Source: Deltaproteobacteria bacterium (GTDB lineage: Bacteria > UBA10199 > 2-02-FULL-44-16 > JAAZCA01). From it: a stretch of DNA of 64,000 nt. The notes under the pieces are model-generated. The model had not been told where the DNA came from and made no database searches. It saw only the letters and a program-made list of their open reading frames with translations. A program made the position numbers and the translations under genes. How positions within the stretch are numbered: position 1 is the stretch's first letter; the number at the start of each line of letters is the position of its first letter. The DNA is taken from assembly GCA_018645265.1 (NCBI GenBank), contig JABGOS010000088.1, positions 11,083 through 75,082 on the forward strand, in the 5' to 3' direction. Below, piece after piece: positions 19,483-43,157 of the stretch.

Positions 19483-19511
19483 CCCCGGGGTGCCTAAGCA
19501 CTTACCCGGGG
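19483..19511 (-). terminator. Rho-independent terminator for the giant TSP3-repeat gene (read on minus strand: hairpin then TTCTTATTTTTT)
   Basis: A GC-rich stem (CCCCGGG...CCCGGGG) with the T-run on the minus strand. Confidence 0.5.
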
Positions 19512-19578
19512 CCTTTGGGGGAGTTCTTTTCTAGTTGTAACCGTTACCAGCGGTTACGTTCCCTATTCCCATCCTTCC

Positions 19579-23730: not shown

Positions 23731-23777
23731 ACTCTATTTAGATACCTCTTAAAATACATCCCCCAGTGTAAATAATC

Positions 23778-24911
23778 TTAGAATACAAACTGCAGAGTGG
23801 CTCCGCCACCGATGCCACCGCTGATCTGTCCCTGATGTCCATTGACATCTGAGTCTGTCGCTTCAAGAACGCTTCTCTCTGAAAAACCTGCGATCGGTAC
23901 ATCGAAGAATACATTACCCATGAGCCTTATGGCCGAGAGAATATCCTCCACACCACCGGTGTTGATCTGGATGCCGGCTGCGAGCATGAATCCGAGAATA
24001 CCGCGTCCCTGCTGTATCGGACCTGTCGCCGTACTGGCGAGATTTGCATATTCACCACCGAGATGGAACTGAGCACCAACTACGAGTGAAACAGAATCAT
24101 GGACCGGGATTACAGGTTCGAGACCTACAAATGCGGTTCCTCTGAAGCCAGCCTTCGGTTCGCTATCTACTGCACCGTTCGATGACATGATGCGGCTGGA
24201 GATAGGAATTCCTAGCAATGCACCGTATGAGAGGAAGAGACCTGAATGCTGCTGTGGCTTTCCCCACATCATAAGGCGACGTCTTCCCTCAAGGCTGATT
24301 TGAACCATGTGGCTAACTGCTCCACCGTCTCCACCCAAATCGCCCATATAGGACATATCACTGAAATCTCCATCGGTACCCTGGACCCATCCGCTACCGC
24401 TGTATCCATAACCAAGGCCCAAAACAAACTGATGCTCATCTACCTTGTCGGCATCTTTCGGTGTCGCTTTGCATGATTTGGAAGCAGCATCAAAAGTTTC
24501 ATCGCTATCACAAGGCTTACATACGCCCGCATCCACTTTCTTGCCTTCAAGAGCACACTCATCAGCAGTCTTCGGCTTCGGTGCGGCCATATCTTTTTCG
24601 ACATCGGCACGCTTCGGCAATGATGGAGCACTTGCCATACCATAAAAGCCAGACATTCCCTTGAACATCGGCAATGGAAGCTTGCCTGTGTGCATCTGGA
24701 AATAATCCTCACACTTAGCTGCGATAGGGGTGCCCTTCGTATGCCCTATGGTGCCGAGAAATTCGGACCAATCCTTCCCTGTGGCATCACCAGCATCAAA
24801 CATCTGTTGATCTGTATCTACCATTGAGCATCTAAATGTGATGCCATCCTTGAAATCCTGACACGCTTTGGTTGTACAACTCTTTAGTGTTCCGTCGCCT
24901 GCTGAAAACAT
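23778..24911 (-). CDS. Cys-rich protein with OMP-like beta-barrel C-terminal half (ends ...GGATLQFVF); no detectable signal peptide
   Basis: Strong RBS (AAGGAGG 7 nt before the ATG). The C-terminal 200 aa have alternating hydrophobic strands and a terminal Phe. Sits immediately upstream of the giant gene on the same strand with a 47-nt gap. Confidence 0.45.
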   Translation of the reverse strand: MFSAGDGTLKSCTTKACQDFKDGITFRCSMVDTDQQMFDAGDATGKDWSEFLGTIGHTKGTPIAAKCEDYFQMHTGKLPLPMFKGMSGFYGMASAPSLPKRADVEKDMAAPKPKTADECALEGKKVDAGVCKPCDSDETFDAASKSCKATPKDADKVDEHQFVLGLGYGYSGSGWVQGTDGDFSDMSYMGDLGGDGGAVSHMVQISLEGRRRLMMWGKPQQHSGLFLSYGALLGIPISSRIMSSNGAVDSEPKAGFRGTAFVGLEPVIPVHDSVSLVVGAQFHLGGEYANLASTATGPIQQGRGILGFMLAAGIQINTGGVEDILSAIRLMGNVFFDVPIAGFSERSVLEATDSDVNGHQGQISGGIGGGATLQFVF

Positions 24912-25266
24912 AATTACCTCCTTGAAATCTTTTTCCCCCGAAAAAGAATGAAGTGACTATTGTCCATTATCCTCCATCTTCATTATCGAACTTAGACGTA
25001 AAAAGTTGCTGGTTTTTTTATCGGTTTTTTTTGGAACTTCAGAAGCGCCCAAATAGGATAAAAAGGACGCTATATCATTAATCATTACATATACTTACAA
25101 AATATGCATTATTTCGGAGCTTTGCATATTTTTTTTGAAAATATCTATTTTTTTCTCCATGAAGAAATTTTTTATTAATTTTACCGAACACATTTTTTGA
25201 TATATTTAGCATTATATAAACGCTCTATACCCAGCCCATCTTCGTCATTTCTCCCAATTTGTTGCT

Positions 25267-25289
25267 AAAAAAGTGTCCGACACTTTTTT
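25267..25289. repeat. REP-like palindromic element copy 1 (AAAAAAGTGTCCGACACTTTTTT)
   Basis: Exact core GTGTCCGACAC flanked by an A-run and a T-run. Lies upstream of the RAYT gene. Confidence 0.75.
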
Positions 25290-25426
25290 GCTGCACATTG
25301 ACCACTTTTCATACACCTACAAGATTCATATCATTGATATATATGGGTTTTTTATGGAATAAATATTGCTCTCTCACATCTCAAATATCAATCGTAACAC
25401 CTATCCAGGAGGTTATTTTGACCAGA

Positions 25427-26029
25427 ATGCCACTTATCCATATCCCGGGGGGTCTCTACTCTGTGGTCAGCAAATGCAATAACAATGAATTTTTGTTCGA
25501 CTCTAAGGATAAATTCGAGCTGTATCTCAGGCATTTAATGGAGTGTAAGAAAGTGCAAGGCTTCAAGATCTACGATATCGTATGCATGTCGAACCATGTT
25601 CATGAACTGTATGAAGTGCCTGAAAAAGTAACTATCGCTAAAATTCTGCAGCGAGTTAAGGGTAGTTTTGCCATAAAATTCAACGTTATTTACAAGAGAA
25701 GCGGTCATTTCTGGAAGAACAAACCATTTTATAGGGTGGTTGAAGATGAGGAGCACGCCATCGCATGCATCAACTATTTCCACGAAAACCCCACAAGGGC
25801 AGGTATGGTGCTGCATCCATCCCTATGGCCCTTCTCCGGATATAACTTCCATGTACATGGTGATCGAACAGGCCTGATAGGAAAGCTACTTGACCCACTA
25901 CCCGGCTACAGCGAATTCTCGCCATTTGATGAGATGAAGATAGATGTTGAAAAGGTCCTAGGCTCTAAAAAACATAAATTTTTAGGCAGCTCTATCTTTC
26001 AGGAATCTATGAAAACAAAGTACAAATGA
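25427..26029 (+). CDS. IS200/IS605-family HUH/Y1 transposase, REP-associated tyrosine transposase (RAYT)-like
   Basis: HuH motif (MSNHVHEL) and a Tyr motif followed by NP.RAG (YFHENPTRAGMV). AGGAGG at 25407-12. The track ORF 25259.. extends 5' across the REP copy and an AT-rich tract, which is unlikely to be coding. TTG at 25418 is an alternative start. Confidence 0.65.
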   Translation: MPLIHIPGGLYSVVSKCNNNEFLFDSKDKFELYLRHLMECKKVQGFKIYDIVCMSNHVHELYEVPEKVTIAKILQRVKGSFAIKFNVIYKRSGHFWKNKPFYRVVEDEEHAIACINYFHENPTRAGMVLHPSLWPFSGYNFHVHGDRTGLIGKLLDPLPGYSEFSPFDEMKIDVEKVLGSKKHKFLGSSIFQESMKTKYK

Positions 26030-26039
26030 TAGATGACAT

Positions 26040-26061
26040 AAAAAAGTGTCGGACACCTTTT
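26040..26061. repeat. REP-like element copy 2, inverted orientation (core GTGTCGGACAC)
   Basis: Reverse-complement orientation of the core. Immediately 3' of the RAYT gene. Confidence 0.75.
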
Positions 26062-26074
26062 GTACAATTCTCGT

Positions 26075-26094
26075 AAAAAGTGTCCGACACCTTA
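26075..26094. repeat. REP-like element copy 3 (core GTGTCCGACACC); forms an inverted doublet (REPIN-like) with copy 2
   Basis: 18 nt from copy 2 and in opposite orientation. Confidence 0.75.
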
Positions 26095-26098
26095 TTCA

Positions 26099-27277
26099 TT
26101 ATAATAGTTCGATCACCATTGCTGTTGCTTCGCCGCCACCATTACACAGCGTTGCCAAACCCAACTTCTCGCCACGATTCTTCATAGCATGAACGAGTGT
26201 CACTAATATTCTTGCACCAGAGGCGCCGATCGGATGACCGACAGCCACTGCACCACCGTTCACATTCACCTTATCAGGATTCAGTTCCAGTTCCTTGATA
26301 GCTGCGAGCGTCACGGCCGAGAACGCCTCATTAATTTCAAAGAGATTAATATCCCCTGCCTTAAGCCCAGCCTTTTCCAAAGCACGTTTCGATGCACCTA
26401 TAGGCGCCGTCGTAAACCACTCAGGCTCTTGTGAAAAACCAGCATGCGAACGTACGTACGCAAGAGGAGTTAACCCTTCCTTCTTTGCTCTACTCTCAGA
26501 CATAACGACGAGCGCCGCAGCACCATCAGAAATTGAACTGGCGTTTGCGGCAGTAATCGTACCATCCTTCTTGAAGGGAGCCTTCAACGTTGGTATTTTA
26601 TCAAACTTCACGCGTCCCGGCTCCTCATCCTTATCGAAGATGATCGGCGCACCCTTCCTCTGTGGTATTTCAACTGTTGTGATTTCATTTTTAAATGCAC
26701 CATTCTCATTTGCAGCCTGCGCGCGCTTATACGTAGCAATCGCATATTCATCCTGAATCTCTCGCATAAATCCATATTTCTCAGCACAAAGTTCCGCACA
26801 TGCACCCATATGCTGATTTGAGTAAATGTCCCAGAGACCATCAAAGACCATTCCATCAACGACCTTTCCATCACCCATCCTGTAACCATTTCTAGCTTTT
26901 GGAAGATAATAGGGTGCATTCGACATCGACTCCATACCACCCGCGATCACAATTTCCACGTCACCGGCACGAATCATCTGGTCCGCAAGCATGACACTCT
27001 GCAAACCGGAGGAACACACTTTGTTGACAGTAAGCACGCCAACTTCTTTTGGTAGGCCGGCACCAAGTGATGCTTGTCGCGCAGGTGACTGACCAAGCCC
27101 TGCCGGAAGAACGCATCCCATAATCACCTGATCAACCTTCGAACCATCGAGACCCGTCTTCTTGAGTGCATCCTTGATGACGATAGAACCAAGCTCAGTA
27201 GATTTCATTCCGGACAAAGCTCCCTGAAAGCTACCGAGAGGAGTTCTTGTTGCTGACACTATGACTGTGCGTTCCAT
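26099..27277 (-). CDS. Acetyl-CoA C-acetyltransferase (thiolase II)
   Basis: Cys-acyl site VNKVCSSGLQ. C-terminal NGGGEATAMVIE thiolase signatures. Confidence 0.85.
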   Translation of the reverse strand: MERTVIVSATRTPLGSFQGALSGMKSTELGSIVIKDALKKTGLDGSKVDQVIMGCVLPAGLGQSPARQASLGAGLPKEVGVLTVNKVCSSGLQSVMLADQMIRAGDVEIVIAGGMESMSNAPYYLPKARNGYRMGDGKVVDGMVFDGLWDIYSNQHMGACAELCAEKYGFMREIQDEYAIATYKRAQAANENGAFKNEITTVEIPQRKGAPIIFDKDEEPGRVKFDKIPTLKAPFKKDGTITAANASSISDGAAALVVMSESRAKKEGLTPLAYVRSHAGFSQEPEWFTTAPIGASKRALEKAGLKAGDINLFEINEAFSAVTLAAIKELELNPDKVNVNGGAVAVGHPIGASGARILVTLVHAMKNRGEKLGLATLCNGGGEATAMVIELL

Positions 27278-27329
27278 TTTATACCCTCCGCTGTGATTTA
27301 CTATTTAGTGCTTCTTAAAAATAATTTCA

Positions 27330-28280
27330 TCAATCCTTGGGGTCGTACGGATGCTCCTTCGCAAGTTTTTCAAATGCCTTCTTAGCCTCACCCTTGAGCC
27401 CCTTCGGTGGAACGATCTTTACGATGACATACTGATCACCCTTCTTACCTTTCTTACCAAGTATGGGAGCTCCCTTTCCACCTATTCTAAATTTCTGTCC
27501 GCCGGAGGTACCGGCAGGTATTTTCATCTTTGCAGAACCACGAACGGTAGGGACCTCAACCGATGCACCCAGCACAGCATCATAAATAGTAATAGGAATC
27601 TCAGTATAAATATCTGCCGCCTCGCGCCAAAATGACTGATGAGGAGTTACGTGCACGCGAAGATAGAGATCACCATCCTTGCCACCACCAAAACCGGGCT
27701 GTCCCTTTCCAGCAATTCTCACCTTGGATCCGTTGTCGACACCTGCGGGAATTTTAACGGTAAGTTTCTCTACATTCTCACCACGCCTGATAGATATCTT
27801 TCTCTGCGTTCCTTCGACACCATCATTGAAATCGATTTCAATGTCGGCAAAGGTATCCTGTCCCTTAACCTGTGGCTGATATGAAGACCTCCTGGCCTCC
27901 CCTTGGGAATAGCCCTTACGCCTTACCCCACCCATATTGAAAAGCTCGCTAAAGAGATCTCCGAGATCGCCCATCTCCCCATAATCGCCCCCCGCAGGAT
28001 CGAAACCCTTGCCAGAGTTCTGCCATCTAAAACCACTGAAGTCCGGACCCGCTCCACCACCTCCGTATGCAGAATTGCCGAACATATCGTACTTCTTTTT
28101 CTGTTCTGGATTGGAAAGGACGTTGTAAGCCTCTGAAATTTCCTTGAAGCGCTCTTCAGCGGCTTTCTCACCTTTGTTGACATCGGGATGATATTGCTTG
28201 GCAAGCCTGCGATAGGCTTTTTTGATCTCGTCCGGTGAGGCCCCTCTGGGCACTCCTAAAGTCTGATAGAAGTCCTTCAT
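27330..28280 (-). CDS. cbpA: J-domain co-chaperone, CbpA-like (DnaJ without zinc-finger domain)
   Basis: J domain with HPD (YHPDVNKG). Gly-rich linker and two C-terminal beta-sandwich domains, with no CxxCxGxG repeats. Confidence 0.75.
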   Translation of the reverse strand: MKDFYQTLGVPRGASPDEIKKAYRRLAKQYHPDVNKGEKAAEERFKEISEAYNVLSNPEQKKKYDMFGNSAYGGGGAGPDFSGFRWQNSGKGFDPAGGDYGEMGDLGDLFSELFNMGGVRRKGYSQGEARRSSYQPQVKGQDTFADIEIDFNDGVEGTQRKISIRRGENVEKLTVKIPAGVDNGSKVRIAGKGQPGFGGGKDGDLYLRVHVTPHQSFWREAADIYTEIPITIYDAVLGASVEVPTVRGSAKMKIPAGTSGGQKFRIGGKGAPILGKKGKKGDQYVIVKIVPPKGLKGEAKKAFEKLAKEHPYDPKD

Positions 28281-28359
28281 AGCGCGGGGATACTCTGATT
28301 TGAGAGGGGCTATGTCAATGGAAATTATAAGAAATTAGTCACTGCACCGATCAAAATAG

Positions 28360-28869
28360 CTATAGAGCTCTTGATAAGGTCGAAGATCCTTCAGAGAAGT
28401 TTGAAAGAAGATATTCTTTATTATAGACGAGAAGCGAACGATCGAAGACAGCATTCTCATACTGTCCACTGTCCAATCTAATTGCATCACATGGACATGC
28501 CTCCGCGCACAATCCGCATAGCATGCAACGTGACATATCTATTTGAAAGCTCTTCGCACGTTTTTCGATATTAGGATCACCGACCTCCTCCGCTTTAATT
28601 GCTATGCAATCAGAAGGACAGACGGTGACACAAAGCATGCAGGCGGTACAACGAATCGAACCATCCTCCCTAGTCATCAAACGCGGTTCGGTCCTACATC
28701 CCGGAGGTAATAGCTTTTTATTTTCTGGATACTCCACCGTGATTCGATCACGCATCTTGAAAAGATTTCTGAGAAAATGATATCCGGTAACAGATAGACC
28801 GCGCACAATTTCAGGAATATATATTCTCTGCCAAAAGCTCATATCCCTTTTGTCGATCATGTAAGCCAT
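28360..28869 (-). CDS. nuoI: NuoI-like 2x[4Fe-4S] ferredoxin (NADH-quinone oxidoreductase subunit I homologue), orphan
   Basis: Two CxxCxxCxxxCP clusters (RCTACMLCVTVCPSDCI and RCMLCGLCAEACPCDAI). LVYNKEYLL aligns with E. coli NuoI LVYEKEDLL. No other nuo genes are nearby. Confidence 0.7.
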   Translation of the reverse strand: MAYMIDKRDMSFWQRIYIPEIVRGLSVTGYHFLRNLFKMRDRITVEYPENKKLLPPGCRTEPRLMTREDGSIRCTACMLCVTVCPSDCIAIKAEEVGDPNIEKRAKSFQIDMSRCMLCGLCAEACPCDAIRLDSGQYENAVFDRSLLVYNKEYLLSNFSEGSSTLSRAL

Positions 28870-28913
28870 GGCATGAAAATACCATCGTGCTACTACATCG
28901 TCAATTGATGGAT

Positions 28914-29405
28914 TTAATGAATTGGATATTTTTCGGCAGGAGTATACTGCTTACCGAAGAGAGGCTTTCTGGCGATATAATCCTCATCGACGTCATGCCA
29001 GAAACTCACCTCCATCTCACCATACTGCCATGAGAGGTACACCTCATCGTCATCCAACCACGAATACATTCTTACAATACCGTGATCGGCGTCCTCTACG
29101 ACTACACCTAATGACTCAATGCGATCCAGGTAATAGAGATAATCCTCGGAATGCTCATCAAGGCGCCGCTTGAGATGCCTTATTATAGGGTTGTCCAGCT
29201 TCTCAAGTTTATCGAGAAACTCATCTTCATCGATGTTGATTCCATAGTCGTTGGCCTTCCTGCAAATATTGTTCACATGCCTCTGCACACTTCCAAGCTT
29301 TCCGAAGAAATACTCGAGCTTAGGTACAATGGCATTCGCCTCTGATATGCTGTAGTAACGTCTCGGTTCAAAGACGATATCGTTATCGTGCTCCATCAAC
29401 CACAC
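28914..29405 (-). CDS. Hypothetical protein (possibly DUF2203-like; C-terminal [15 protein letters not shown])
   Basis: 163 aa, acidic. Overlaps the dcd stop by 10 nt, so it is probably co-transcribed. The family assignment is from memory of a motif only. Confidence 0.35.
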
Positions 29406-29953
29406 CCCTTTGCAACTGTTATCTCCTTCTGAGCCTGATACTTGCCCTTCTTATCCGCATAGGACACTTCACATGTCTCATCAGCACCCAGAAATAAAAT
29501 TTGGCCTATCCCCTCTCCCGCATAGATCTTGGCAGGATATGGCGTCGTGTTTGAAATGGCGATCGTAGCATGTCCTTCCCACTCAGGTTCGAATGGAGTT
29601 ACGTTTAGATGCACACCGCATCTTGCGTACGTAGACTTTCCATAGCATATGGTGATCACATCCCTAGGAATTCTAAAATACTCCACCGTCTGCGCGAGAA
29701 CATAACTGTTAGGTGGTATCTCACAGACATCACCTTCATAACTGCGAAAATGCGCACTCACATCCATCTTCGGATCCATGATGCCGCACTTTGCGGAATC
29801 AAAGATCTTGAAGTTTCGATCTATTCTAAAATCGTATCCATATGACGACAGGCCATAGGATATGCCATGACGTACCTGTTTCTCCTCAAATGGCTCAATC
29901 ATACCTTTTAGCTCAGCCATTTCCTTGATCCAACCGTCGGATTTTACTCCCAT
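29396..29953 (-). CDS. dcd: dCTP deaminase
   Basis: SSYGYDFRI and the housekeeping 185-aa length. Confidence 0.85.
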
Positions 29954-30083
29954 AAATTATTCCCCTAATTTCAAAATTATAAATGATATCCTCTAATGTA
30001 TACGTGGCGCTATACACCCAAAACACCTATAAATTCAAGCTTTGACATCAATCTGATATATATGTTGTATATCAACAAGTTGA

Positions 30084-30782
30084 ATGATATTCATTAAAGA
30101 ATTACAAAATGCTGGGGGAGATTTTTTGAAGAATAAAAGGCAGCTAATAGCGGTTCTAGTGATAATTTTAGGCCTTCTGGGGTTTTATACAGTCTCCAGG
30201 ATCTTCTCTACACCTAGCGTTTCACACCTCAGGTGGCACATTCCAAAGAAAACCGCCTTCATGAAGGATTGTGATACGGAGATTCAACGACAATATGTAC
30301 CCCTATCGAAGATATCTCTCTTTCTGAAGCAGGCTGTCATCTTGGCGGAAGATGATAGGTTCCCGCAGCATGATGGAATTGATTGGAAAGCGATTATGGA
30401 GGCATTCAAAAGAAACTGGAAGAGAAAACGGATAAGCCACGGCGCATCGACTATCACTATGCAACTAGCAAAGAATCTCTACCTCTCCCCCAGAAGGTCA
30501 CCATTTCGTAAAATCAAAGAGATGCTGATCGCCTTGAAACTGGAGCGAGAACTCTCCAAAGATCGCATCCTTGAAATATATCTCAACGTAGCTGAGTTTG
30601 GCTGTGGAATTTTTGGTGCCGAAGCGGCAGCAAAGCACTACTTCGGCGGTTCGGCCAGGTACCTGGACAAGCATCAAGCAGCATTCCTAGCTGCGATACT
30701 TCCTAGACCCTGTTTCTACGACAAACACAGATGGGGAGCCTTCCTTCAAGAGCGCATTCAAGGTATAGAAGGAAGGTTGTAG
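30084..30782 (+). CDS. mtgA: Monofunctional biosynthetic peptidoglycan transglycosylase
   Basis: GT51 motifs EDDRFPQHDGID and GASTITMQLAKNLYLSP. N-terminal TM anchor. Confidence 0.8.
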   Translation: MIFIKELQNAGGDFLKNKRQLIAVLVIILGLLGFYTVSRIFSTPSVSHLRWHIPKKTAFMKDCDTEIQRQYVPLSKISLFLKQAVILAEDDRFPQHDGIDWKAIMEAFKRNWKRKRISHGASTITMQLAKNLYLSPRRSPFRKIKEMLIALKLERELSKDRILEIYLNVAEFGCGIFGAEAAAKHYFGGSARYLDKHQAAFLAAILPRPCFYDKHRWGAFLQERIQGIEGRL

Positions 30783-30824
30783 CCTTAAAGAGTCAGCTAA
30801 ATAGAATTACTTACATCAACAAAT

Positions 30825-30857
30825 AAAAAACCCGGCTAGAAAAGCCGGGTTTTTTTA
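30825..30857. terminator. Bidirectional Rho-independent terminator (A7-CCCGGCT-AGAAA-AGCCGGG-T7)
   Basis: A perfect 7-bp GC stem flanked by an A-run and a T-run. Sits between convergent mtgA and the histone gene. Confidence 0.8.
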
Positions 30858-30871
30858 TCAATAAATATATT

Positions 30872-31051
30872 CTAAATATCACGATCCTTAACCGTCTGAC
30901 GGCCATTATCCTTCGCACGCGCTATGGCTTTATCCAAAAGCTCACGCACAGCATTTGAAAGAGCTTCTACAGCTGTCTCTGAGGTCTGCATCCCCTGTTC
31001 CTTCACATATTCTTTGACCTTCGATACCACTACTAATGTTTCCTTCGCCAT
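30872..31051 (-). CDS. Bacterial histone-fold protein (singlet histone, HBb-like), 59 aa - absent from ORF track (<60 aa)
   Basis: Translation: MAKETLVVVSKVKEYVKEQGMQTSETAVEALSNAVRELLDKAIARAKDNGRQTVKDRDI. Strong RBS (AAGGAGGGGAG then ATG). It has a histone-fold helix-strand-helix with the conserved GR.T...RDI loop, as in archaeal HMfB GRKTIKAEDI. The LVV.SKVK N-terminus matches my recollection of Bdellovibrio HBb. Confidence 0.7.
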   Translation of the reverse strand: MAKETLVVVSKVKEYVKEQGMQTSETAVEALSNAVRELLDKAIARAKDNGRQTVKDRDI

Positions 31052-31331
31052 ACTCCCCTCCTTTGTGTTGTCATAATTTATCGAAGGGCGATTTTTGAGT
31101 ATAGGCGCCGTATTGTCAAATTAAAAAATGGAGTTACTTGGATTGACATCATTTCAATGCTCTGCTAGATTCCCGCGGCCTTTCGGGTAGATAGCCAGAC
31201 AATACGGCGGAAATATCGACAGGAATTTGATAAATGCTGTCTCAGAAGGCTTAGATCTCGGTCCTTGAAAAGATGAAATATTGATAAAATCATGTCCCTA
31301 TTCGAAAGATTCTGCCCTTCTGTCATTTGTT

Positions 31332-31407
31332 GGGCCGCTAGCTCAGTCGGCAGAGCAACGCCCTTTTAAGGCGTGGGTCGAAGGTTCGAACCCTTCGCGG
31401 CTCACCA
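31332..31407 (+). tRNA. tRNA-Lys (anticodon TTT), CCA encoded
   Basis: Cloverleaf: acceptor GGGCCGC/GCGGCTC, anticodon loop CTTTTAA, T-loop GGTTCGAAC. 76 nt. Confidence 0.9.
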
Positions 31408-31475
31408 AAAGACATGAATGATGGCTAGAATCAGTCTGATTTTTATAGCAATTCATGATTTCGCAATATTTCACA

Positions 31476-31547
31476 GACCCCATCGTCTAGCGGTTAGGAC
31501 ACCGCCCTTTCACGGCGGCAGCACGGGTTCGATCCCCGTTGGGGTCG
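31476..31547 (+). tRNA. tRNA-Glu (anticodon TTC), no encoded CCA
   Basis: Acceptor GACCCCA/TGGGGTC, anticodon loop CTTTCAC, T-loop GGTTCGATC. Confidence 0.85.
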
Positions 31548-31558
31548 CAAAAAGCTAA

Positions 31559-31588
31559 GCTCCACCATATGGTGGGGCTTTTCTTTTT
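31559..31588 (+). terminator. Rho-independent terminator after tRNA pair
   Basis: 8-bp stem GCTCCACC/GGTGGGGC with ATAT loop, followed by TTTTCTTTTT. Confidence 0.7.
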
Positions 31589-31688
31589 ATAACCTCCTAC
31601 TTGACCAATCCTTGTATCAAAAATATAATGCGCACCATCATTTGGTGGCTCAAAGTTTGGGGCTACCTCAAATTCGAGGGAGGAATAT

Positions 31689-32219
31689 ATGAGGAAATTA
31701 GTAATCGCACTATCGATCGCCGCGAGCGTGACGATTCTGCTCCCGCAGATCGCTTCAGCAGGAACAGCCATGTTCAATAAGGACATGCAGGGCAGCAAGA
31801 TGGCCCTCGACAAACAGTGCATGCCACCCGCTGTAATGGTTGGTGTCGTCTACTCCGATAGAGGCGGCACAGATGCTATGGATGCTGCATCTGCAATTTG
31901 TTATTCAAAGCAACGCGGAGAATTTGAGATTCCTAACTCTGATTTTGGAGATCGCGCGAAGGTACGTGCTAAATGCAACCGTGATACAGAATATGTATGG
32001 GGTATTGCCTATAAAGACCGTGTCGACAGTGATGAGGCTGATGGCGTTACCGTAATATGCAGAAATAAGAAGAGTGGCTCGCAGAGAATTGTCAATGTAC
32101 CGGACCTTGCAGGTGGCCGTGCGTGGATGCAATTCACTGGAGCAAACGCAATAGGCATCTCCTGTAACGATAGGCAGGACTCCGATTCAGTAGATGGCTG
32201 CACTGTAATAGTAAAATAA
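31689..32219 (+). CDS. Small secreted protein with three internal D-x-DSD-x-DG-x-TVIC repeats
   Basis: Signal peptide (LLPQIASAGTA). Repeats DRGGTDAMDAASAICY, DRVDSDEADGVTVICR and DRQDSDSVDGCTVIVK. GAGGGAGG RBS. Confidence 0.5.
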   Translation: MRKLVIALSIAASVTILLPQIASAGTAMFNKDMQGSKMALDKQCMPPAVMVGVVYSDRGGTDAMDAASAICYSKQRGEFEIPNSDFGDRAKVRAKCNRDTEYVWGIAYKDRVDSDEADGVTVICRNKKSGSQRIVNVPDLAGGRAWMQFTGANAIGISCNDRQDSDSVDGCTVIVK

Positions 32220-32247
32220 GAATCAGCATCGAAAGAACCACATAGAA

Positions 32248-32277
32248 ACCCGGGTCAGTCATGATCCGGGTTTTTTT
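32248..32277 (+). terminator. Rho-independent terminator (CCCGGG stem + T7)
   Basis: ACCCGGG...TCCGGGT followed by TTTTTTT, immediately 3' of the 31689..32219 gene. Confidence 0.7.
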
Positions 32278-32283
32278 ATTTCG

Positions 32284-32302
32284 AAAAAGTGTCGGACACT
32301 TT
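32284..32302. repeat. REP-like element copy 4 (AAAAAGTGTCGGACACTTT)
   Basis: Same core as the RAYT-flanking copies. Follows the terminator. Confidence 0.7.
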
Positions 32303-32452
32303 AATGTGCCTATATATCATATAGATAAGAAATTTTGCGCTATTTAAAAGCTATATCAGAGAAAAGAAACTCACGCAAAAATAGCGCAACAAAGTTATCC
32401 TCTGGCCGATAAGAACCTGATTCATCATATAATGATATATTAGGAGGTTTAA

Positions 32453-33994
32453 ATGTCTAAACTGTTCTCCATCTTAGCACTTATAACAGTGCTTTTCCTT
32501 TCTCCAATGAGCCATGCAGACAACCAAATGACGGAAACGTTTCTAAACGACTTGGACTATCTGCATGAAGTGGGCGGTGACATATATTGTTATTGGGATC
32601 TCAAGAAGGAGATGGATGGGGTCGACTGGGATGAGCTCTATGAAGAGGCACGCTCACAGATGACCTCAGCTACTACGATCAAAGGATACTATACCATCCT
32701 TCGCAAGATGATAGCAGGAGTACACGATGGACATGTCAATATCTCGATGTTGAAAAATCAACTCAGCAATCCATACTATCTACCGCTAAGATTCAAAGAA
32801 GTTGAAGGAAATAAAATCGTAATCTCCGCTATAAAAACGGGAGCTTTTATAGATCAACCGCCCTTCACACTTGGTGATCAGGTCGTCGCTATGAATGACA
32901 TTCCAATAGAGGATGTAATCACGGACTGGCAGCAATATATGTCGGGCTCAACGGAACAACTGAGACGTTTCTATACGATCAAATTCATGCACAACTGGCC
33001 GCCATACAATGAACCTCCAATGAGCAATTCAATTCTCACGATCAAAGATGGAGGGACGACTCGCAAAGTTGAAGTTCCCTGGATCATCTATGACTATAAC
33101 GATGACCCAACATATAAGATGGAAGAGTACCGCATCAACGAGGATGTGGAAGCAAAGATTCTCCCGGGGAATATCGGATATCTCAGAGTGAGCGCAATGT
33201 ACGCCCCTGTGGATGAGAAATACATTCCATATATCAGATCTCAGATGGAGAAACTTCTGAACACCGATGGGCTCATCATCGATGTCCGAAATAATGGTGG
33301 CGGTTGGGGTGAAGTTGGTGATGCAATAATCAGCTACCTAATTGACGAACCTAAAATTCGTTACAAAGCCTCGCCTAGGATGTCTCCTCAGCTATTATAT
33401 GCAAGACCCCACTTTTATTCCGCATTCGAAGCGGACTTTGAAAACGATCCTCTATTTGCAAAATGGAAGGATTTCATCATTGAACCAGCACCCAAGGAGC
33501 TTCGATACAAGGGAGAAGTCATTACATTGATCAATTCAAAGTGTTTTTCAGCATGCGATACTTTCGCTGACAGCATCGCATCAAACAAGCTTTCAAAGAT
33601 GATGGGTACACCGACAGGAGGCGGCACCGGCTATCCAATGTATATTGAGATGCCTAGCGGAATGAGCGTAGCCAGATTCTCAACTACTCGAGGGTATTCC
33701 AACTTTGGCAGGCTCTTGGAGGGCACTGGTACAATTCCGGATATCTACGCCAGACTAACAAATGATGATATTAGGAATCGCCGCGATTCCGTTCTGATGA
33801 GCGCATATGAAATGTTGCTTGGCGATAATCAGCTAACAAAATCACACTCTCTCAAAAACGCAGTCACATATTCATACTCCGGGAAGAAGGAACTAGTTTT
33901 CTTTCCACTCGCCGATGAAGAGATACTGCCTCAGAATATTGAAGAGGAGAGGCTCATCAACCTGAGCAGCCACGAATTTGATGAGCTTTGGTGA
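32453..33994 (+). CDS. Secreted S41-family (tail-specific/C-terminal processing) peptidase
   Basis: Signal peptide. DVRNNGGGW matches the S41 LRNNGGG motif. A PDZ-like segment lies upstream. Confidence 0.65.
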   Translation: MSKLFSILALITVLFLSPMSHADNQMTETFLNDLDYLHEVGGDIYCYWDLKKEMDGVDWDELYEEARSQMTSATTIKGYYTILRKMIAGVHDGHVNISMLKNQLSNPYYLPLRFKEVEGNKIVISAIKTGAFIDQPPFTLGDQVVAMNDIPIEDVITDWQQYMSGSTEQLRRFYTIKFMHNWPPYNEPPMSNSILTIKDGGTTRKVEVPWIIYDYNDDPTYKMEEYRINEDVEAKILPGNIGYLRVSAMYAPVDEKYIPYIRSQMEKLLNTDGLIIDVRNNGGGWGEVGDAIISYLIDEPKIRYKASPRMSPQLLYARPHFYSAFEADFENDPLFAKWKDFIIEPAPKELRYKGEVITLINSKCFSACDTFADSIASNKLSKMMGTPTGGGTGYPMYIEMPSGMSVARFSTTRGYSNFGRLLEGTGTIPDIYARLTNDDIRNRRDSVLMSAYEMLLGDNQLTKSHSLKNAVTYSYSGKKELVFFPLADEEILPQNIEEERLINLSSHEFDELW

Positions 33995-34032
33995 TAGAAC
34001 TCAAATAACTAAACAGCTGAGTGTAATTGGAT

Positions 34033-35361
34033 TCAGGATATGCCCTGTACCTTCTTCACTAAAGGCGCAATAACCTCCTCCAGATGTTTCTCTGATGTTT
34101 CACTTGCTTTGTTTAAGAGCAGCTTAAGTGTAATTGGCCCGATCAATTGATTGATAGTTATAGCGGCTATCATAACAGTACGAAATGTTGCACCCCACTC
34201 GGGAAATACCCTTGCAACTGTAACAACAAGTCCAAGGCCAACGCCTGCCTGACTTACGAATCCCATCCAGCCATAGCGCTTGAGAAGACGCCCTTCCTTA
34301 CCTATACTTGCCCCTGCATATGTACCGACTGCTGTACCAAGAACCCTCAAAAATACTATACCCAAAGCATAAGGCCACATCGTCCGGATGGCAGTGAAAT
34401 CGATCATAGCACCAGCCAAGGCAAAAAATATGATATATACTGCCATTGAGGTGCGCTCTATAGCACCTACCAATCGATCGCCAAGACTCGTAAAGTTTTC
34501 TACTAGAAATCCAGCCATCAAACATGAAAGAAGATAGTGAAAACCCAATAATTTTGATAAAAATACGATCCCCAATGAGACCGTAACAACGAAGATAACG
34601 AACTCACGTCGTATATATTTAAGATAAAGGCCAACCACTACACTGACCGCTACGCCTCCGATCAAGGAGAGTGCGATAACGATGAGTGCCTCACCAATAA
34701 CCCCACCCTTAAGCGTTCCCCCCACCTTTATGGCGTAGGCAATGGCAAGCGCCATGGTAAAACCCAAAAAGACCAGAACATCCTTAATTACAGTCACACC
34801 TATTGTAATGTCGGTAATGCGGCCCTTCGACCTAGACCCAACGATGACAGCGATAGTGGTTGCAGGTGAACATGCAACCGCAACAGCACCAAGCATAATT
34901 GAAACAACGATCAGATCTCTCGTCAAAAGTCCGAAGCTGTTTATATGATACATGGCGAGATAGCTACCACCCATGACAATTGCAAAGATCAATACCGCCT
35001 GTAATACAGATATTGATAATATACTCAGTGCACATTTTTTAAATTTAGATAACTTTATCTCTCCACCAGCGGTAAAAGCTATTAAAGCTAGAGCTAGATC
35101 CTCTACGATTCCAAACTGCAGGACTGTTCCGTGATCCACCAAGTTGAGCAATTCCGGTCCACAGATAATACCCGCCAGGAGATATCCTGAAATACTCGGA
35201 AGTCCTATTTTTACAACGTAGCAACCGGCAATGTATCCGGCAAATATCATAAAACCAAATGCGAGAATGGCCCTAGGCATTGGATCCGCACCGGTAGCCC
35301 CCATAAGGTATTTCAACGTAAGCATAGATAACATCAAGAAGAAGAGAACGAGCACCCTCAT
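34033..35361 (-). CDS. Cation:proton antiporter (CPA/NhaP-KefB-like), paralogue 1
   Basis: 12+ TM segments. GLPSISGYLLAGIICGPELLNLV matches the CPA N-terminal signature. Confidence 0.6.
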   Translation of the reverse strand: MRVLVLFFLMLSMLTLKYLMGATGADPMPRAILAFGFMIFAGYIAGCYVVKIGLPSISGYLLAGIICGPELLNLVDHGTVLQFGIVEDLALALIAFTAGGEIKLSKFKKCALSILSISVLQAVLIFAIVMGGSYLAMYHINSFGLLTRDLIVVSIMLGAVAVACSPATTIAVIVGSRSKGRITDITIGVTVIKDVLVFLGFTMALAIAYAIKVGGTLKGGVIGEALIVIALSLIGGVAVSVVVGLYLKYIRREFVIFVVTVSLGIVFLSKLLGFHYLLSCLMAGFLVENFTSLGDRLVGAIERTSMAVYIIFFALAGAMIDFTAIRTMWPYALGIVFLRVLGTAVGTYAGASIGKEGRLLKRYGWMGFVSQAGVGLGLVVTVARVFPEWGATFRTVMIAAITINQLIGPITLKLLLNKASETSEKHLEEVIAPLVKKVQGIS

Positions 35362-36566
35362 GCTATACCCTCCTCTCTATTGAGGAGGAGCCTGATAAAA
35401 TATGAACTAGCCACACCATTTATGACAAATGCGATAACGACGGCACTGACGACAATCTGACTGATCATCCCAGGATACCTATTTAAAAAATCCAAAGACA
35501 TTGCAATTGATAGACCGCCCTGTTCCAAGAGCGAAAGCCCGAATAAATTTGGATTGCCTTTCATGAGAGGAACCGCCCAAAACGCAACTCGTGAGCCCAA
35601 CATCTTTGCCACAATTCTTATCACTACAAAAAAGAGGGACAACAGAACACAGAATGACTCAAATCCCATCCAGTATGCACCAGCTAGAATCAACATCATT
35701 CCAAAAAGAGGCTTCTCTGCGTTGGATAGGAGGCTTAACAATCTATCCTGATCATCAGAAAAATTATTAAGGACAATTCCAACGATCATCGAAAGAAAGA
35801 GAGGCGATACATCTATTGTAGAAGCTGCACCCGCCAGCATCACCACGATGCCAATCGCTATAACCAACCTTTCATTACTGGACAGCCTCAGCTTAAGGAA
35901 GACGTGATATAGAATACCCAAGAGAAAGCCGAGTCCTATTGTAATCAACAACCATATAAATCCTTGTACAAAAGCCCCTTCCACCATCGTATCCATCTTG
36001 AAGAACGAAAGGGATATCCCAAAAAGAGATATCCCTACAATGGCGTCGGATGCAGATACATAGAGTAGTGTCCTAGCAGTTGTGCCATGAGCCCTCATAC
36101 GTCTGACCACAGCGGAAACAGCAGTAGGTGCAGAAATGCTAGCAATAGCGGCAAGCGCAAATACGACTGGAAGCTCCTCAGACAGTGATAGAAAGAGATC
36201 AGGTTTAAAATAACGCAGGGGCAGCAGAAAAAGGCAGCAGAAAAAGAATACGACCAATGACTGAATAACCGCTATCTTAAAGTTCGCTCGCGATATCAGC
36301 CTCAAACTCTTAACTCTGAATTGAAGGCCAAACATGAGCCCAGCCCAACTGAGTATGATCGATGTTGGAGCGATGAATAGATCGAGCCGTGTTGAGTTCA
36401 ACCAATCCATACCAAGAGGTCCTACGGCCACCCCCATTAGTATGAAACCAACTCCAGCATGTAAAAAACTTGATATAAAGAATGGAAGACGCCAAGACTT
36501 AAAGACCAATCCAGCACCCATGTAGGCGAAAAGAACGAGGATTAGGATAAAGATAATGGATTCCAT
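35358..36566 (-). CDS. Cation:proton antiporter-like membrane protein, paralogue 2
   Basis: Multi-TM. ILMGVAVGP segment. Overlaps paralogue 1 by 4 nt (coupled). Confidence 0.55.
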   Translation of the reverse strand: MESIIFILILVLFAYMGAGLVFKSWRLPFFISSFLHAGVGFILMGVAVGPLGMDWLNSTRLDLFIAPTSIILSWAGLMFGLQFRVKSLRLISRANFKIAVIQSLVVFFFCCLFLLPLRYFKPDLFLSLSEELPVVFALAAIASISAPTAVSAVVRRMRAHGTTARTLLYVSASDAIVGISLFGISLSFFKMDTMVEGAFVQGFIWLLITIGLGFLLGILYHVFLKLRLSSNERLVIAIGIVVMLAGAASTIDVSPLFLSMIVGIVLNNFSDDQDRLLSLLSNAEKPLFGMMLILAGAYWMGFESFCVLLSLFFVVIRIVAKMLGSRVAFWAVPLMKGNPNLFGLSLLEQGGLSIAMSLDFLNRYPGMISQIVVSAVVIAFVINGVASSYFIRLLLNREEGIA

Positions 36567-36580
36567 AATAGGGCATCATC

Positions 36581-36928
36581 TTAGGACGATTTCCCGCCTC
36601 CCCCCTTAAGCCCAATGAACCTTCCAACCGGCAGGGTAAAAAGAACCCCCATACCTTCCTCTTCGAAATCACCACATATCTCTTTAACAAGCCTAACAAC
36701 CTTTTCGACCTGATCCTCATCCGCAACTGATAGGATCATGTGGTTGCCTATATTTCCTCCAGGCATGAGATCACGAAGACCGGCAAAGATAGGCACCTCC
36801 GCCGTAAGAATCTGCCCCATACCACGACTGTCAATAACCGTAGCGCCCTTTATGCCGATGTCGACAAAGCCCGTCAGGATATCGTCCAGAAAACGAGTGT
36901 GTTTTATGATCAATACGATGAGTTCCAA
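36581..36928 (-). CDS. PII-like (GlnB/DUF190 superfamily) signal-transduction protein
   Basis: 115 aa with a beta-alpha-beta ferredoxin-like start (MELIVLIIKHTRFLDDIL). Gly-rich T-loop-like segment. Lies 15 nt upstream of the transporter pair. Confidence 0.55.
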   Translation of the reverse strand: MELIVLIIKHTRFLDDILTGFVDIGIKGATVIDSRGMGQILTAEVPIFAGLRDLMPGGNIGNHMILSVADEDQVEKVVRLVKEICGDFEEEGMGVLFTLPVGRFIGLKGGGGKSS

Positions 36929-36966
36929 TTATCCCCCCGTTCTCTACAAATATCTAAAAAAAACAC

Positions 36967-37434
36967 CTACCCCACACAACGTTCATCTTCCTCTAGAATC
37001 AGTTGCACGAGATCATCTTTATCTTCTGACTGACTAAGCAGCTCTATAAAGATATCCTTGGAGCACAACCTGGATATGCGCGCCAACAGAGCTATATGTT
37101 CATCCACAGCAGCAGGTGGGCTGATCAGCACTATAACCAATTTCACCGGTCTTTTATCTATAGATTTAAAATCGATTGGATCCGCAAGGGTTGCGATTGC
37201 CATGTAGGTTTTATCCAAGCTCTCGATTGTTGCGTGAGGTATTGCCAGCCCCTTACCTATACCTGTAGAACAACTCGATTCCCTCTTCAAAAGCTCCCTA
37301 ACGACGATATCCACATCTATCTTTACACCGGATTCATAGAACTCTTCGGACAGTGTCCTGAATAAGGAATCCACAGATGGGGTATGAACTTTTACAGCGA
37401 TTACAGCATCTTTTAAGAATGGTGCGAGTTTCAT
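36967..37434 (-). CDS. ptsN: PTS EIIA type-2 (EIIA-Ntr/PtsN-like) regulatory protein
   Basis: GIGKGLAIPHAT with the phosphorylatable His. 155 aa. Confidence 0.7.
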   Translation of the reverse strand: MKLAPFLKDAVIAVKVHTPSVDSLFRTLSEEFYESGVKIDVDIVVRELLKRESSCSTGIGKGLAIPHATIESLDKTYMAIATLADPIDFKSIDKRPVKLVIVLISPPAAVDEHIALLARISRLCSKDIFIELLSQSEDKDDLVQLILEEDERCVG

Positions 37435-37476
37435 ATGCGCATTTGAAACCGTGAAGGGACAGGATGTCGAACTCTA

Positions 37477-37493
37477 AAGCGTCCGACGCTTCT
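37477..37493. repeat. Degenerate REP-like copy with compensatory stem changes (AAAGCGTCCGACGCTTC)
   Basis: T>C and A>G substitutions preserve the palindrome (GCGTC/GACGC). Confidence 0.5.
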
Positions 37494-37579
37494 TACAAAG
37501 TGATGTCTATACCCTCACAACTCCAGTATCCTAAAGTACGCAAACTGATATCATGATGAAGATAAGAGGTAAAGCACGT

Positions 37580-38176
37580 CTATACCGCGGGAGTTGTCTT
37601 CTTTCTGCGTCCCCTGACACCACCCTTTGGCATGATGACCGGCTTTACCGTTTCGAATAGCCTTGAATGATCGAACGGTGTGGAAATCCTAAGATCTGCG
37701 CCATTGTTAGGAGCTGTAGGTCCGGAAACTACGGCAACTTTCACATTCTTAAGCGAGGGTGCCATGTGAATGCTTTTGCAAGCCTTTGTGGCATCCAAAC
37801 CGGTCAGTGATGTATTTAAGATAACAAGATCAGGTTTCATTGACTCAATTAAAATACCTGCTTCGAATATATCATCCGTATTACGAACCTCGACGTTGTT
37901 TCTGTGAGTATGAAAGGATTCCTGAAGGCTGCGACTGACTTCCCCATCCTTGTCGACTACCACAATCTTCTTCTTCTCAGGATCGTGCTTGTCATTTATG
38001 GGCAAAGCATACTCGCGAGAAAAGCTCTCAAGATCGTCAATATTTATTCTAAGATGACCACCGGCAGTTCTATAAGCGGAGAGAAGTCCCCTCTTAATCC
38101 AATTTTTGATAGTGTTATAACTTACATTACACAGTGCAGCTGCTTCAAATGTTGTCAGTATTTGCTTGTTGGCCAT
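37580..38176 (-). CDS. HTH (MerR/excisionase-type) DNA-binding protein fused to a receiver-like domain lacking the phospho-acceptor Asp (pseudo-receiver)
   Basis: N-terminal LTTFEAAALCNVSYNTIKNWIKRGLL. The receiver-like fold has DLVILN where DLVILD is expected. Confidence 0.5.
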   Translation of the reverse strand: MANKQILTTFEAAALCNVSYNTIKNWIKRGLLSAYRTAGGHLRINIDDLESFSREYALPINDKHDPEKKKIVVVDKDGEVSRSLQESFHTHRNNVEVRNTDDIFEAGILIESMKPDLVILNTSLTGLDATKACKSIHMAPSLKNVKVAVVSGPTAPNNGADLRISTPFDHSRLFETVKPVIMPKGGVRGRRKKTTPAV

Positions 38177-38294
38177 CTAACCCTCCGAATTTAAAAGATA
38201 ATATTGCGTATAGTTGATTATACAATTATTATAATACTAAGTGCTGAAGTGCTCTGCATAGTAGAATTGATAAAATTTAGCAACTGCTAAATAA

Positions 38295-39557
38295 TTATTT
38301 CTTGATCAGCGAGGCGCCAAAAAAGCCATCCCAGCTGTAAGTGACGGGATTTGTTCTGAAATACATTCCATCGATAATATCGGTCGAGTCTACAGAATAA
38401 CGGGCAAAGTATTGATCTGGCTTCTCTAAAGCGAAGTCTCCGTTCCTCTCTAAAAATTTCTTCACGACATCATCATTTTCCTCATCGAACAGACTACAGG
38501 TCAGATAGACGACCCTTCCCCCTTCAGCAACAAACTGAGTTCCCTCATTTAGGATTTCCAATTGCATCTCTGCCCTATCCGAAATCAGTTTTTCATCGAT
38601 ACGCCATTTTAGATCAGGATTTCGACGTAAGGTCCCAGTCCCGGTACATGGGGCATCAATCAAAACGACATCAAATGATCCACGGAGTTTGTTGCTATCC
38701 ATCAAAGTGTCTTTAGATATAGTCTCTATACAATCGATTTTCATCCTCTTCGCTCTTGCATACAACTTCTTGAGTTTTTTTGAATCGATGTCCGATGCAA
38801 ACATCTGGCCCTGGCCGTTCATTAAATCCGCCAACATAAGAGATTTTCCACCTGCACCGGCGCACAGATCCAAAACCTTCTGTTTCTCACTGGAGAAAGC
38901 CAAGAACGTAGCAAGTTGACTAGCCTCATCCTGAATATCTATAGAACCATTCTTGTATGATGGCACGGTTTCGAGGTTCACCCTCTTGTTTAATCTGATA
39001 CCGAATGGAGACATTGTAGTCTCAAGTCCTTGTATTCCTAAATCCTTAAGCTCAGATATAATAATATCCCTATCAGTCTGAGCTTTGTTGATACGAAGAA
39101 CCGGCATAAGGGGTTCGTTCAGGGAAGGAAGACGGCCTTTATACTCTTCTGTACGATTCTTTTTTATTCTCCGATACAAAAAATCAGGCAATGAATAATA
39201 CGCAGCCTCACCACCTGGAAACCTATTCGAACCTACAGAATCATAATCAATACCGGAGAGCATTGCCTCAATAGTAGCATTGAGGACTAGTTTCTCTGAG
39301 CCCTCCGGTTTCTTCCACAAGTAGTAACACAGAATCCTATTCTGCCACGTCGATTTCCTGACACCAGACAGCTCAAGATATCCATCAAGGCGTCTTAACC
39401 AACGCATAACACCGAAGATCGTCTCGTAAAGCAGCCTTCGGTTCGCCCCGCTGATCTCCTTATGTTTCTTAAGATAAGCGGATAATACCCTATCGATTGG
39501 CTTGGGTTCTATCTCGAATGATTTAAGGACTGTAACTGAATGATCAATTATATTCAT
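38295..39557 (-). CDS. rsmB: RNA m5C methyltransferase, NOL1/NOP2/Sun (RsmB-like) family
   Basis: SAM motif DLCAGAGGKS. Catalytic DAPCTGTG and a second Cys region. Confidence 0.7.
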   Translation of the reverse strand: MNIIDHSVTVLKSFEIEPKPIDRVLSAYLKKHKEISGANRRLLYETIFGVMRWLRRLDGYLELSGVRKSTWQNRILCYYLWKKPEGSEKLVLNATIEAMLSGIDYDSVGSNRFPGGEAAYYSLPDFLYRRIKKNRTEEYKGRLPSLNEPLMPVLRINKAQTDRDIIISELKDLGIQGLETTMSPFGIRLNKRVNLETVPSYKNGSIDIQDEASQLATFLAFSSEKQKVLDLCAGAGGKSLMLADLMNGQGQMFASDIDSKKLKKLYARAKRMKIDCIETISKDTLMDSNKLRGSFDVVLIDAPCTGTGTLRRNPDLKWRIDEKLISDRAEMQLEILNEGTQFVAEGGRVVYLTCSLFDEENDDVVKKFLERNGDFALEKPDQYFARYSVDSTDIIDGMYFRTNPVTYSWDGFFGASLIKK

Positions 39558-39595
39558 AGAGACAACTATAAGATCCGCTTAAAGAACATTGGACA

Positions 39596-40897
<1,302 letters not shown>

Positions 40898-40913
40898 TTA
40901 ACATGCTTTAAAA

Positions 40914-42320: not shown

Positions 42321-42369
42321 AAAATTTAAAACTCCTATTCACGTCTAATTTTTGAAATAGCTCAAATGA

Positions 42370-43147: not shown

Positions 43148-43157
43148 TTGCAAATAA

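Follow-up and report, generated by a model that had tools for sequence, protein, structure and literature searches.

Bacterial histones occur in fewer than 2% of bacterial genomes (PMC10627809), and a short reading frame in metagenomic DNA labelled Deltaproteobacteria bacterium has been put forward as a further one. The locus raises the question of whether an ORF of 59 codons, just below the 60-aa cutoff of an ORF list, is a gene at all, whether its product is a histone, and by which of the known modes of histone assembly that product would bind DNA. We addressed this within a stretch of 64,000 nucleotides of contig JABGOS010000088.1, referred to below as the window.

A 59-codon gene between a terminator and a tRNA pair

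The minus-strand ORF at 30872..31051 is present as the original prediction described it, with an ATG at 31051..31049 and a TAG at 30874..30872, and the translation quoted there was reproduced exactly. The features of the locus are as follows.

30084..30782, plus strand: mtgA (TIGR02070, 207 bits), convergent with the histone gene
30825..30855, both strands: bidirectional intrinsic terminator, a 13-pair hairpin between the histone gene and the convergent mtgA
30872..31051, minus strand: histone-fold coding sequence (59 aa), stop codon included, MAKETLVVVSKVKEYVKEQGMQTSETAVEALSNAVRELLDKAIARAKDNGRQTVKDRDI, assigned from the ORF, homology, AF2/Foldseek and dN/dS
31055..31063, minus strand: ribosome binding site AAGGAGGGG, with a GGAGG-to-ATG gap of 5 nt, read from the sequence
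31091..31128, minus strand: putative promoter region of the histone gene (consensus scan, 10/12 matches)
31091..31096, minus strand: putative -10 AAAAAT of the histone gene (consensus scan)
31114..31119, minus strand: putative -35 TTGACA of the histone gene, with a 17-nt spacer to the -10
31123..31128, minus strand: T-tract upstream of the histone gene, part of the putative promoter
31143..31171, plus strand: tRNA-facing promoter-like site, TTGACA-17-TAGATT with a TG extension (consensus scan)
31332..31407, plus strand: tRNA-Lys(ttt), divergent from the histone gene
31476..31548, plus strand: tRNA-Glu(ttc), divergent from the histone gene

The ribosome binding site had been called strong, and AAGGAGG is indeed in place ahead of the ATG; (A/G)GGAGG stands at the same position relative to the start codon in all 11 of the related loci compared. 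The terminator, also described as strong, holds up equally well. Its hairpin folds at -21.0 and -19.3 kcal/mol on the two strands (z = -6.2 and -6.6), none of 200 shuffled sequences folded as well, and it is bidirectional since a U-run follows it on each strand, so that it would be common to the histone gene and the convergent mtgA. A hairpin with a T-run also follows the histone stop codon in most relatives. On the other side lie tRNA-Lys and tRNA-Glu, divergently oriented (31332..31548, plus strand), and the gene therefore sits between a terminator and a tRNA locus, as had been stated.

The T-tract and TTGACA box upstream of the gene form its putative promoter, from the position of which a 5' UTR of approximately 33 nt is predicted. 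A T-tract and TTGAC(A) box were found 60–70 nt 5' of the ATG in 10 of 11 relatives, within flanks that are otherwise unalignable. The tRNA-facing site, with its -35 TTGACA at 31143..31148 and an extended TG -10, is part of the context and lies outside the histone transcription unit; its -35 hexamer, which reads as a TGTCAA box on the other strand upstream of the histone gene, is kept in 8/11 relatives. The two promoter-like sites stand back to back (31091..31171) within one 280-bp intergenic region, and in most relatives both -35 boxes are kept while the surrounding sequence is not. An Rfam scan of the window returned three tRNAs only, and no RNA element in or around the histone gene. High expression of the histone is plausible, given the promoter, ribosome binding site and terminator signals and by analogy with HBb of Bdellovibrio and the Leptospira histone.

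The length of the ORF is uninformative alone because the ORF list of the window contains many chance ORFs near 59 aa; the case for a real gene comes instead from conservation across relatives. A word-indexed protein search returned 114 database relatives with 58–100% identity, nearly all of them exactly 59 aa long and all from metagenomes or MAGs, and a scan in which each GTDB species was represented by a single genome gave 34 histone loci. Synteny was compared for the 16 closest of these, in which the arrangement of histone, convergent mtgA and dcd recurs with identities of 61–90% for the histone, 48–58% for mtgA and 59–79% for dcd (in locus L006 the three values are 90%, 54% and 79%). Directly upstream of the histone gene, L006, L009, L014 and L016 have both tRNAs and L015 has only tRNA-Lys; the pair also adjoins the histone gene in L011, with its orientation reversed, and is separated from it by about 2.8 kb in L019. 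When the window gene was compared with its counterparts in 11 of the closest loci, synonymous differences were at or near saturation (pS 0.56–0.87 vs pN 0.05–0.17), and dN/dS was 0.02–0.07 for the loci with a computable dS. The stop codon falls right after codon 59 in 11/11 loci.

These comparisons establish the ORF as a genuine gene that is transcribed on its own and kept by strong purifying selection. Were it a chance ORF or a decaying remnant without a product, as its length below 60 aa and the many ORFs of similar length arising by chance in the window might suggest, neither the low dN/dS at saturated synonymous sites nor the synteny across many species-level genomes would be expected, and these two observations rule that reading out. 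The invariant length and stop position, the conserved ribosome binding site, promoter box and terminator, and the confident fold prediction described below also speak against it, and we assign it a negligible probability.

The gene had been described as unannotated, which proved incorrect. GenBank contains the identical protein as MBT3181839.1, 'hypothetical protein HN337_04925 [Deltaproteobacteria bacterium]', and in IMG it carries the name 'histone H3/H4'. A 158-kb IMG contig has this histone gene flanked by the same genes, and the identical gene occurs in the samples IMG 3300072015 and 3300004111 and ENA ERZ4201001, ERZ23491529, ERZ27246207 and ERZ508549. The earlier impression stemmed from the 60-aa cutoff of the ORF track. 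A 176-aa ORF at 31689..32219 (plus strand) is also called as a gene on the IMG contig that carries the identical histone. Its N-terminus resembles a signal peptide, and segments that contain Cys recur along it (…DRGGTDAMDAASAICY… / …DRVDSDEADGVTVICR… / …DRQDSDSVDGCTVIV), and no NCBIfam match was found for it. Across the window as a whole, most of 4001..56000 shows a strongly negative GC skew (-0.15 to -0.24) that weakens at 28–36 kb, and the skew is near zero at 1..4000 and 56001..64000; this pattern probably reflects gene strand bias or the replication strand.

The taxonomic labels of the related contigs are inconsistent. For loci L006–L039, NCBI gives Deltaproteobacteria, Pseudomonadota, Myxococcales, Bdellovibrio sp., Anaerolineales and plain 'bacterium' to contigs that have near-identical histone genes and the same synteny, which suggests a poorly classified uncultured lineage together with some mis-binning. 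The RIFCSP/CG 'Deltaproteobacteria' MAGs that have the histone gene may belong to the GTDB phylum UBA10199. No paper linking UBA10199 with a histone was found in the literature.

Histone fold and nearest relatives

A phmmer search with the single sequence matched HLp (9QT0) with an E-value of 5.8e-10, HBb (8FVX/8CMP) with 2.8e-9 and HTkC (9F2C) with 1.9e-5. With a profile of 27 clade members the same proteins were matched at 3.2e-17, 1e-15 and 7e-11, respectively, and nucleosomal archaeal histones came next, at 1e-3 to 1e-2. HLp (9QT0–9QT2), from Leptospira perolatii, is a histone around whose tetramer DNA is wrapped (Hu et al. 2025, PMC12701072), HBb (8FVX, 8CMP and 9EZZ) is Bd0055 of Bdellovibrio bacteriovorus (PMC10627809, PMC11317129), and HTkC (9F2C) is an archaeal face-to-face (FtF) histone of Thermococcus kodakarensis (PMC11390915).

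The AF2 monomer model (pLDDT 88.9) has helices at residues 9–18 and 25–48 and a three-residue helical turn at 56–58, which is the α1-L1-α2-L2 layout originally proposed with a three-residue α3 turn added. Foldseek aligned the model to HLp with a TM score of 0.83–0.88, to HBb with 0.84–0.89 and to HTkC with 0.81–0.84, at an rmsd of 1.0–1.8 Å; archaeal and eukaryotic histones followed at 0.5–0.65, and all 50 of the matches listed are histones or histone-fold proteins. The histone-fold assignment was thus upheld by structure and profile searches alike. The conserved L2 loop motif that had been claimed is present as R51-x-T53-xxxx-D58, with R51, T53 and D58 invariant in the 27 clade members; this is the RxTxxxxD motif, comprising the RD clamp and a DNA-contacting threonine, as defined in PMC11390915.

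None of the curated histone models reached its cutoff. Pfam PF00808 (CBFD_NFYB_HMF) scored 16.0 bits (cutoff 21.4), PF09123 (DUF1931) 16.5 bits (cutoff 21.8), PF00125 14.4 bits (cutoff 26.4) and the NCBIfam model archaea_histone NF043032 26.8 bits (E = 5e-6, cutoff 50), and the sub-threshold histone matches were mixed with hits to unrelated families, among them Flagellin_N and Pneumovirus_M2, that were just as weak; taken alone, these scans are uninformative. We attribute this to a sensitivity limit, since the models are built on longer histones, and the scores below cutoff in turn explain the GenBank label 'hypothetical protein'.

α3-truncated histones have an α3 of 3–4 residues and, compared with nucleosomal histones, an α2 shortened by 4–5 residues (Schwab et al. 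2024, PMC11390915). The present chain stops at residue 59, by which point three residues of the α3 turn are in place, and has a 4-residue gap in α2 when aligned to the archaeal histone HmvA; by the definition of Schwab et al. 2024 it is an α3-truncated prokaryotic histone. The archaeal nucleosomal histones HMfA, HMfB and HPhA also have a histone fold with the RxTxxxxD motif in L2, but their sequence similarity to the 59-aa protein is marginal (E about 1e-2), the TM scores are 0.53–0.63, their α2 is 4–5 residues longer, and their full α3 of about 10 residues, which forms the four-helix-bundle interface of hypernucleosomes, is truncated here. Bacterial singlet histones are characterised by Ser-Lys at the start of α1 (S9-K10 of Bd0055), a hydrophobic N-terminus and a length of at most 65 aa (Hocher et al. 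2023, PMC10627809). In the 59-aa protein S10-K11 is invariant and preceded by LVVV, and the likeness to the N-terminus of HBb noted in the original prediction is real, as both proteins have the LVVxSKVK start.

When 1.84 billion cluster representatives were searched with a profile, a wider family of 1682 clusters emerged at E ≤1e-3, 324 of them at E ≤1e-10, and a permissive tblastn search of the window with 17 bacterial histones found no second histone-fold gene. Members of the same orthologous group had been catalogued before: OGQ22999.1, PIU58409.1 and OGQ40011.1, all from uncultured 'Deltaproteobacteria' MAGs, appear as bacterial histone-fold singlets in Supplementary Table 1 of Hocher et al. 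2023 (PMC10627809). OGQ22999.1 (P0111) is 76% identical to the 59-aa protein, and PIU58409.1, a partial sequence, agrees at all of its 55 residues with P0085, whose identity to the 59-aa protein is 80%. These orthologues come from species other than the present one, and no FtF or dimer subgroup assignment was found for the three accessions. The gene described here is a further member of the bacterial histone family catalogued in 2023; what is mildly new is the mixed dimer and tetramer character of its clade and its fixed, highly conserved locus.

Dimer-type or tetramer-type assembly

To our knowledge, biochemical work on bacterial histones covers two of them only, HBb and HLp. HBb acts as a dimer that bends or coats DNA (PMC10627809, PMC11317129), and HLp wraps DNA as a tetramer (PMC12701072). 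As a category, FtF histones are defined by a homotetramer (torus), either observed or predicted with a confident interface. In these histones, residues R48, N52, R54, T56 and D61 of the FtF HMM are conserved, and the interface arginine forms a salt bridge to the C-terminal carboxylate of the opposing dimer (PMC11390915); the corresponding tetramer interface of HLp involves R49, N53 and R55 (PMC12701072). Bacterial dimer histones lack R48 and N52 and carry RKT in L2 (PMC11390915); their group was delimited by CLANS clustering. In the 59-aa protein, R45, N49, R51, T53 and D58 have a spacing identical to that of the FtF set, all five are invariant in the clade, and L2 reads RQT rather than RKT.

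HLp is the best sequence match of the 59-aa protein, and the alignment of the two is gapless. R49, N53 and R55 of HLp correspond to R45, N49 and R51, its RD clamp R55-D62 corresponds to R51-D58, and both chains stop one residue past the clamp aspartate, at F63 in HLp and at I59 here. The N-terminus of HLp is about 7 residues longer, whereas the 59-aa protein is without an N-terminal tail, and S52, T61 and RTT of HLp are replaced by D48, R57 and RQT. The HLp-like Leptospira homologue is also more basic (pI 9.05 vs 8.0), Leptospira is reported to be without HU (PMC12701072) whereas an IHF/HU-type protein is encoded in the present genome, and the neighbouring genes are SMC and MAP in Leptospira as opposed to the tRNAs, mtgA and dcd. 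It should also be borne in mind that HLp is a tetramer, while the 59-aa protein is known here from its sequence and a monomer model.

HBb has in common with the 59-aa protein the short α2, the RD clamp and most DNA-contact residues, and it likewise coexists with DNABII proteins. It differs in having S and D at the positions of the invariant R45 and N49, RKT in place of RQT, a one-residue insertion in L1 and five extra C-terminal residues (VIDHL). The same one-residue L1 insertion is found in the Waddlia, Simkania and Bdellovibrionales dimers, which together with HBb run 2–10 residues past RDx; the use of L1 insertion and C-terminal extension as a dimer criterion is empirical and derives from the present analysis. 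HTkC is also 59 aa long and tail-less, has the same chain end and carries an arginine equivalent to R45, but it is only about 40% identical to the 59-aa protein, reads RKT, has a two-residue L1 insertion and has E at the position of N49. Since HTkC is a proven tetramer, N49 is not strictly required for tetramer formation, and it may not suffice for it.

These characters were surveyed in 204 histone domains from 149 best family representatives, aligned to the clade profile. The domains fall mainly into two classes. The first combines the arginine and asparagine with no L1 insertion and with the chain end (59 domains, and a further 24 in which the chain continues at the C-terminus); the second has neither residue and shows both the L1 insertion and the C-terminal extension (69 domains). 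On 4/4 features the 59-aa protein falls in the first class.

Whole-sequence comparisons give a different picture. A neighbour-joining tree joins the clade and the bacterial dimer group as sisters. Profiles built from broad anchor sets score it at 80.9 bits (FtF) vs 77.5 bits (dimer), and profiles built from literature-labelled anchors only at 59.2 bits (FtF) vs 74.1 bits (dimer), where true members favour the profile of their own class by 25–55 bits. Even on the strictly labelled dimer profile, the score of the clade stays far below those that true members reach on their own class. The identity of the 59-aa protein is 48–50% to HBb vs 43–44% to HLp. The description 'HBb-like' in the original prediction therefore stands as far as overall similarity goes, but the four discriminating features are all HLp-like. 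From these comparisons, we regard the sequence of the clade as intermediate and its tetramer-interface signature as complete. A search of the supplements of Schwab et al. 2024 by sequence, accession and taxon did not find the clade. It is tentatively possible that it constitutes a third, intermediate group of bacterial α3 histones with a complete FtF interface.

The surveyed family also includes tandem doublets (P0115–P0147 and others), which account for 55 of the 149 best family representatives. They are 118–270 aa long and have two α3-type histone folds per chain; in 16 of them each half carries the FtF-like R/N, and in 18 each half is dimer-like and has the L1 insertion. The doublets of the literature are mostly DUF1931 pseudodimers. 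More distant homologues with the FtF signature were found in MAGs of Peribacteria/Peregrinibacteria (CPR).

Going by the motifs, a face-to-face tetramer appears somewhat the likelier assembly for the 59-aa histone. The protein might instead stay a dimer of the HBb type that bends DNA or coats straight DNA end-on with no wrapping, the latter as reported for Bd0055 (PMC10627809, PMC11317129). This is a serious contender, although we hold it to be less than evenly probable. Among solved structures HBb has the highest identity to the 59-aa protein and a TM score of 0.84–0.89, and the tree position of the clade and the scores of the strictly labelled profiles point in the same direction. So do the N-terminal LVVxSKVK, the ...KDRDI motif that resembles ...MDRDF of the dimers, and the presence of a DNABII protein, as in Bdellovibrio and unlike Leptospira (PMC12701072). 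Against a permanent dimer stand the presence and invariance of R45 and N49 and the RQT of L2 where dimers have RKT (PMC11390915), as well as the lack of both the one-residue L1 insertion and a C-terminal extension of at least 2 residues. The residues equivalent to R45 and N49 in HLp touch neither DNA nor the partner chain, and the strict conservation of two such surface residues at the end of α2 is hard to explain without a dimer-dimer interface.

DNA-contact residues and a proposed place in the nucleoid

In the two HLp-DNA crystals, side-chain contacts are made by S14, K15, K17, K21, T27 and T57 (PMC12701072). These map to S10, K11, K13, K17, T23 and T53 of the 59-aa protein, all of which are invariant in the clade. 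The main contacts of HBb (PMC11317129) are kept at 8/10 positions, namely S10, K11, K13, K17, T23, S24, T53 and R57. The 6.6-kDa protein itself is weakly basic, with a pI of 8.0, a net charge of +0.5 and no basic tail, compared with a pI of 8.85 for HBb and 9.05 for the HLp-like Leptospira homologue. Whichever oligomer it forms, these residues lead us to expect non-specific binding to the DNA backbone through the N-terminus of α1 and the paired L1/L2 loops.

The original prediction had also pointed to an HU homologue as a second nucleoid component. A DNABII protein is indeed encoded at that place, with IHF-beta as its best match.

49267..50373, minus strand: dprA, with the DNABII gene directly upstream
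50432..50779, minus strand: DNABII protein of 115 aa, best match IHF-beta (112.7 bits, equivalog cutoff 115)

Since the window encodes this IHF-beta-like protein, the 59-aa histone is not the sole nucleoid protein, and the combination of histone and DNABII protein resembles Bdellovibrio more than Leptospira. The DNABII protein has a 23-residue C-terminal tail rich in Ser, Thr, Gly and Pro that is absent from classical IHF and HU.

Taken as a whole, the evidence is best explained by a minimal, 59-aa tetrameric DNA-wrapping nucleoid histone, to which we assign a probability of roughly 0.55. The gene would be transcribed alone, from its own sigma70-type promoter to the bidirectional terminator, and two chains would pair as a histone-fold dimer. 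This dimer would bind DNA non-specifically, with phosphate contacts from the first turn of α1 (S10, K11, K13 and K17) supplemented by contacts from the L1/L2 loops (T23, S24 and T53), while the R51-D58 clamp would keep L2 in shape. R45, N49, R51 and the I59 carboxylate would most likely hold two dimers together face to face as a closed tetramer, in the manner of HLp of Leptospira and HTkC of Thermococcus, and about 60 bp of DNA could wrap around this tetramer. The histone would then act as a general packager of the nucleoid, alongside the IHF/HU-type protein encoded at 50432..50779. For DNA binding, tetramer formation, wrapping and abundance alike, we infer the behaviour of the 59-aa histone.

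Histone folds also occur outside chromatin, as in the eukaryotic TAF and NF-Y proteins. A role of this kind for the 59-aa protein, for instance as a specific regulator or as an adaptor between proteins, would fit with its nearly neutral pI of 8.0 and with the absence of any functional link to its neighbours mtgA, dcd and the tRNAs, and Schwab et al. caution that prokaryotic histone-fold proteins need not all be global organisers (PMC11390915). We consider it improbable, because the DNA-phosphate contact residues common to HLp and HBb are all invariant, the gene stands alone with strong-looking signals of its own and no partner gene, the window has no second histone-fold gene, and the nearest characterised relatives are abundant nucleoid proteins (PMC10627809, PMC11390915).

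The 59-aa histone opens no new category, but it adds a well-supported bacterial histone from an uncultured lineage. Its retention at one locus and its far slower evolution than that of its neighbours suggest a core function. For annotation, it demonstrates that a 60-aa ORF cutoff and current Pfam and NCBIfam thresholds both miss α3-truncated histones. The combination of a dimer-like overall sequence with a tetramer-like interface provides a cheap, informative test of which residues decide the mode of DNA binding. If these proteins are indeed DNA-wrapping tetramers, the clade would mark the proposed evolutionary bridge between FtF histones and bacterial dimers, and the 59-aa histone would be a core chromatin protein, kept at a fixed locus, of an uncultured lineage labelled 'Deltaproteobacteria' that also keeps an IHF/HU-type protein.
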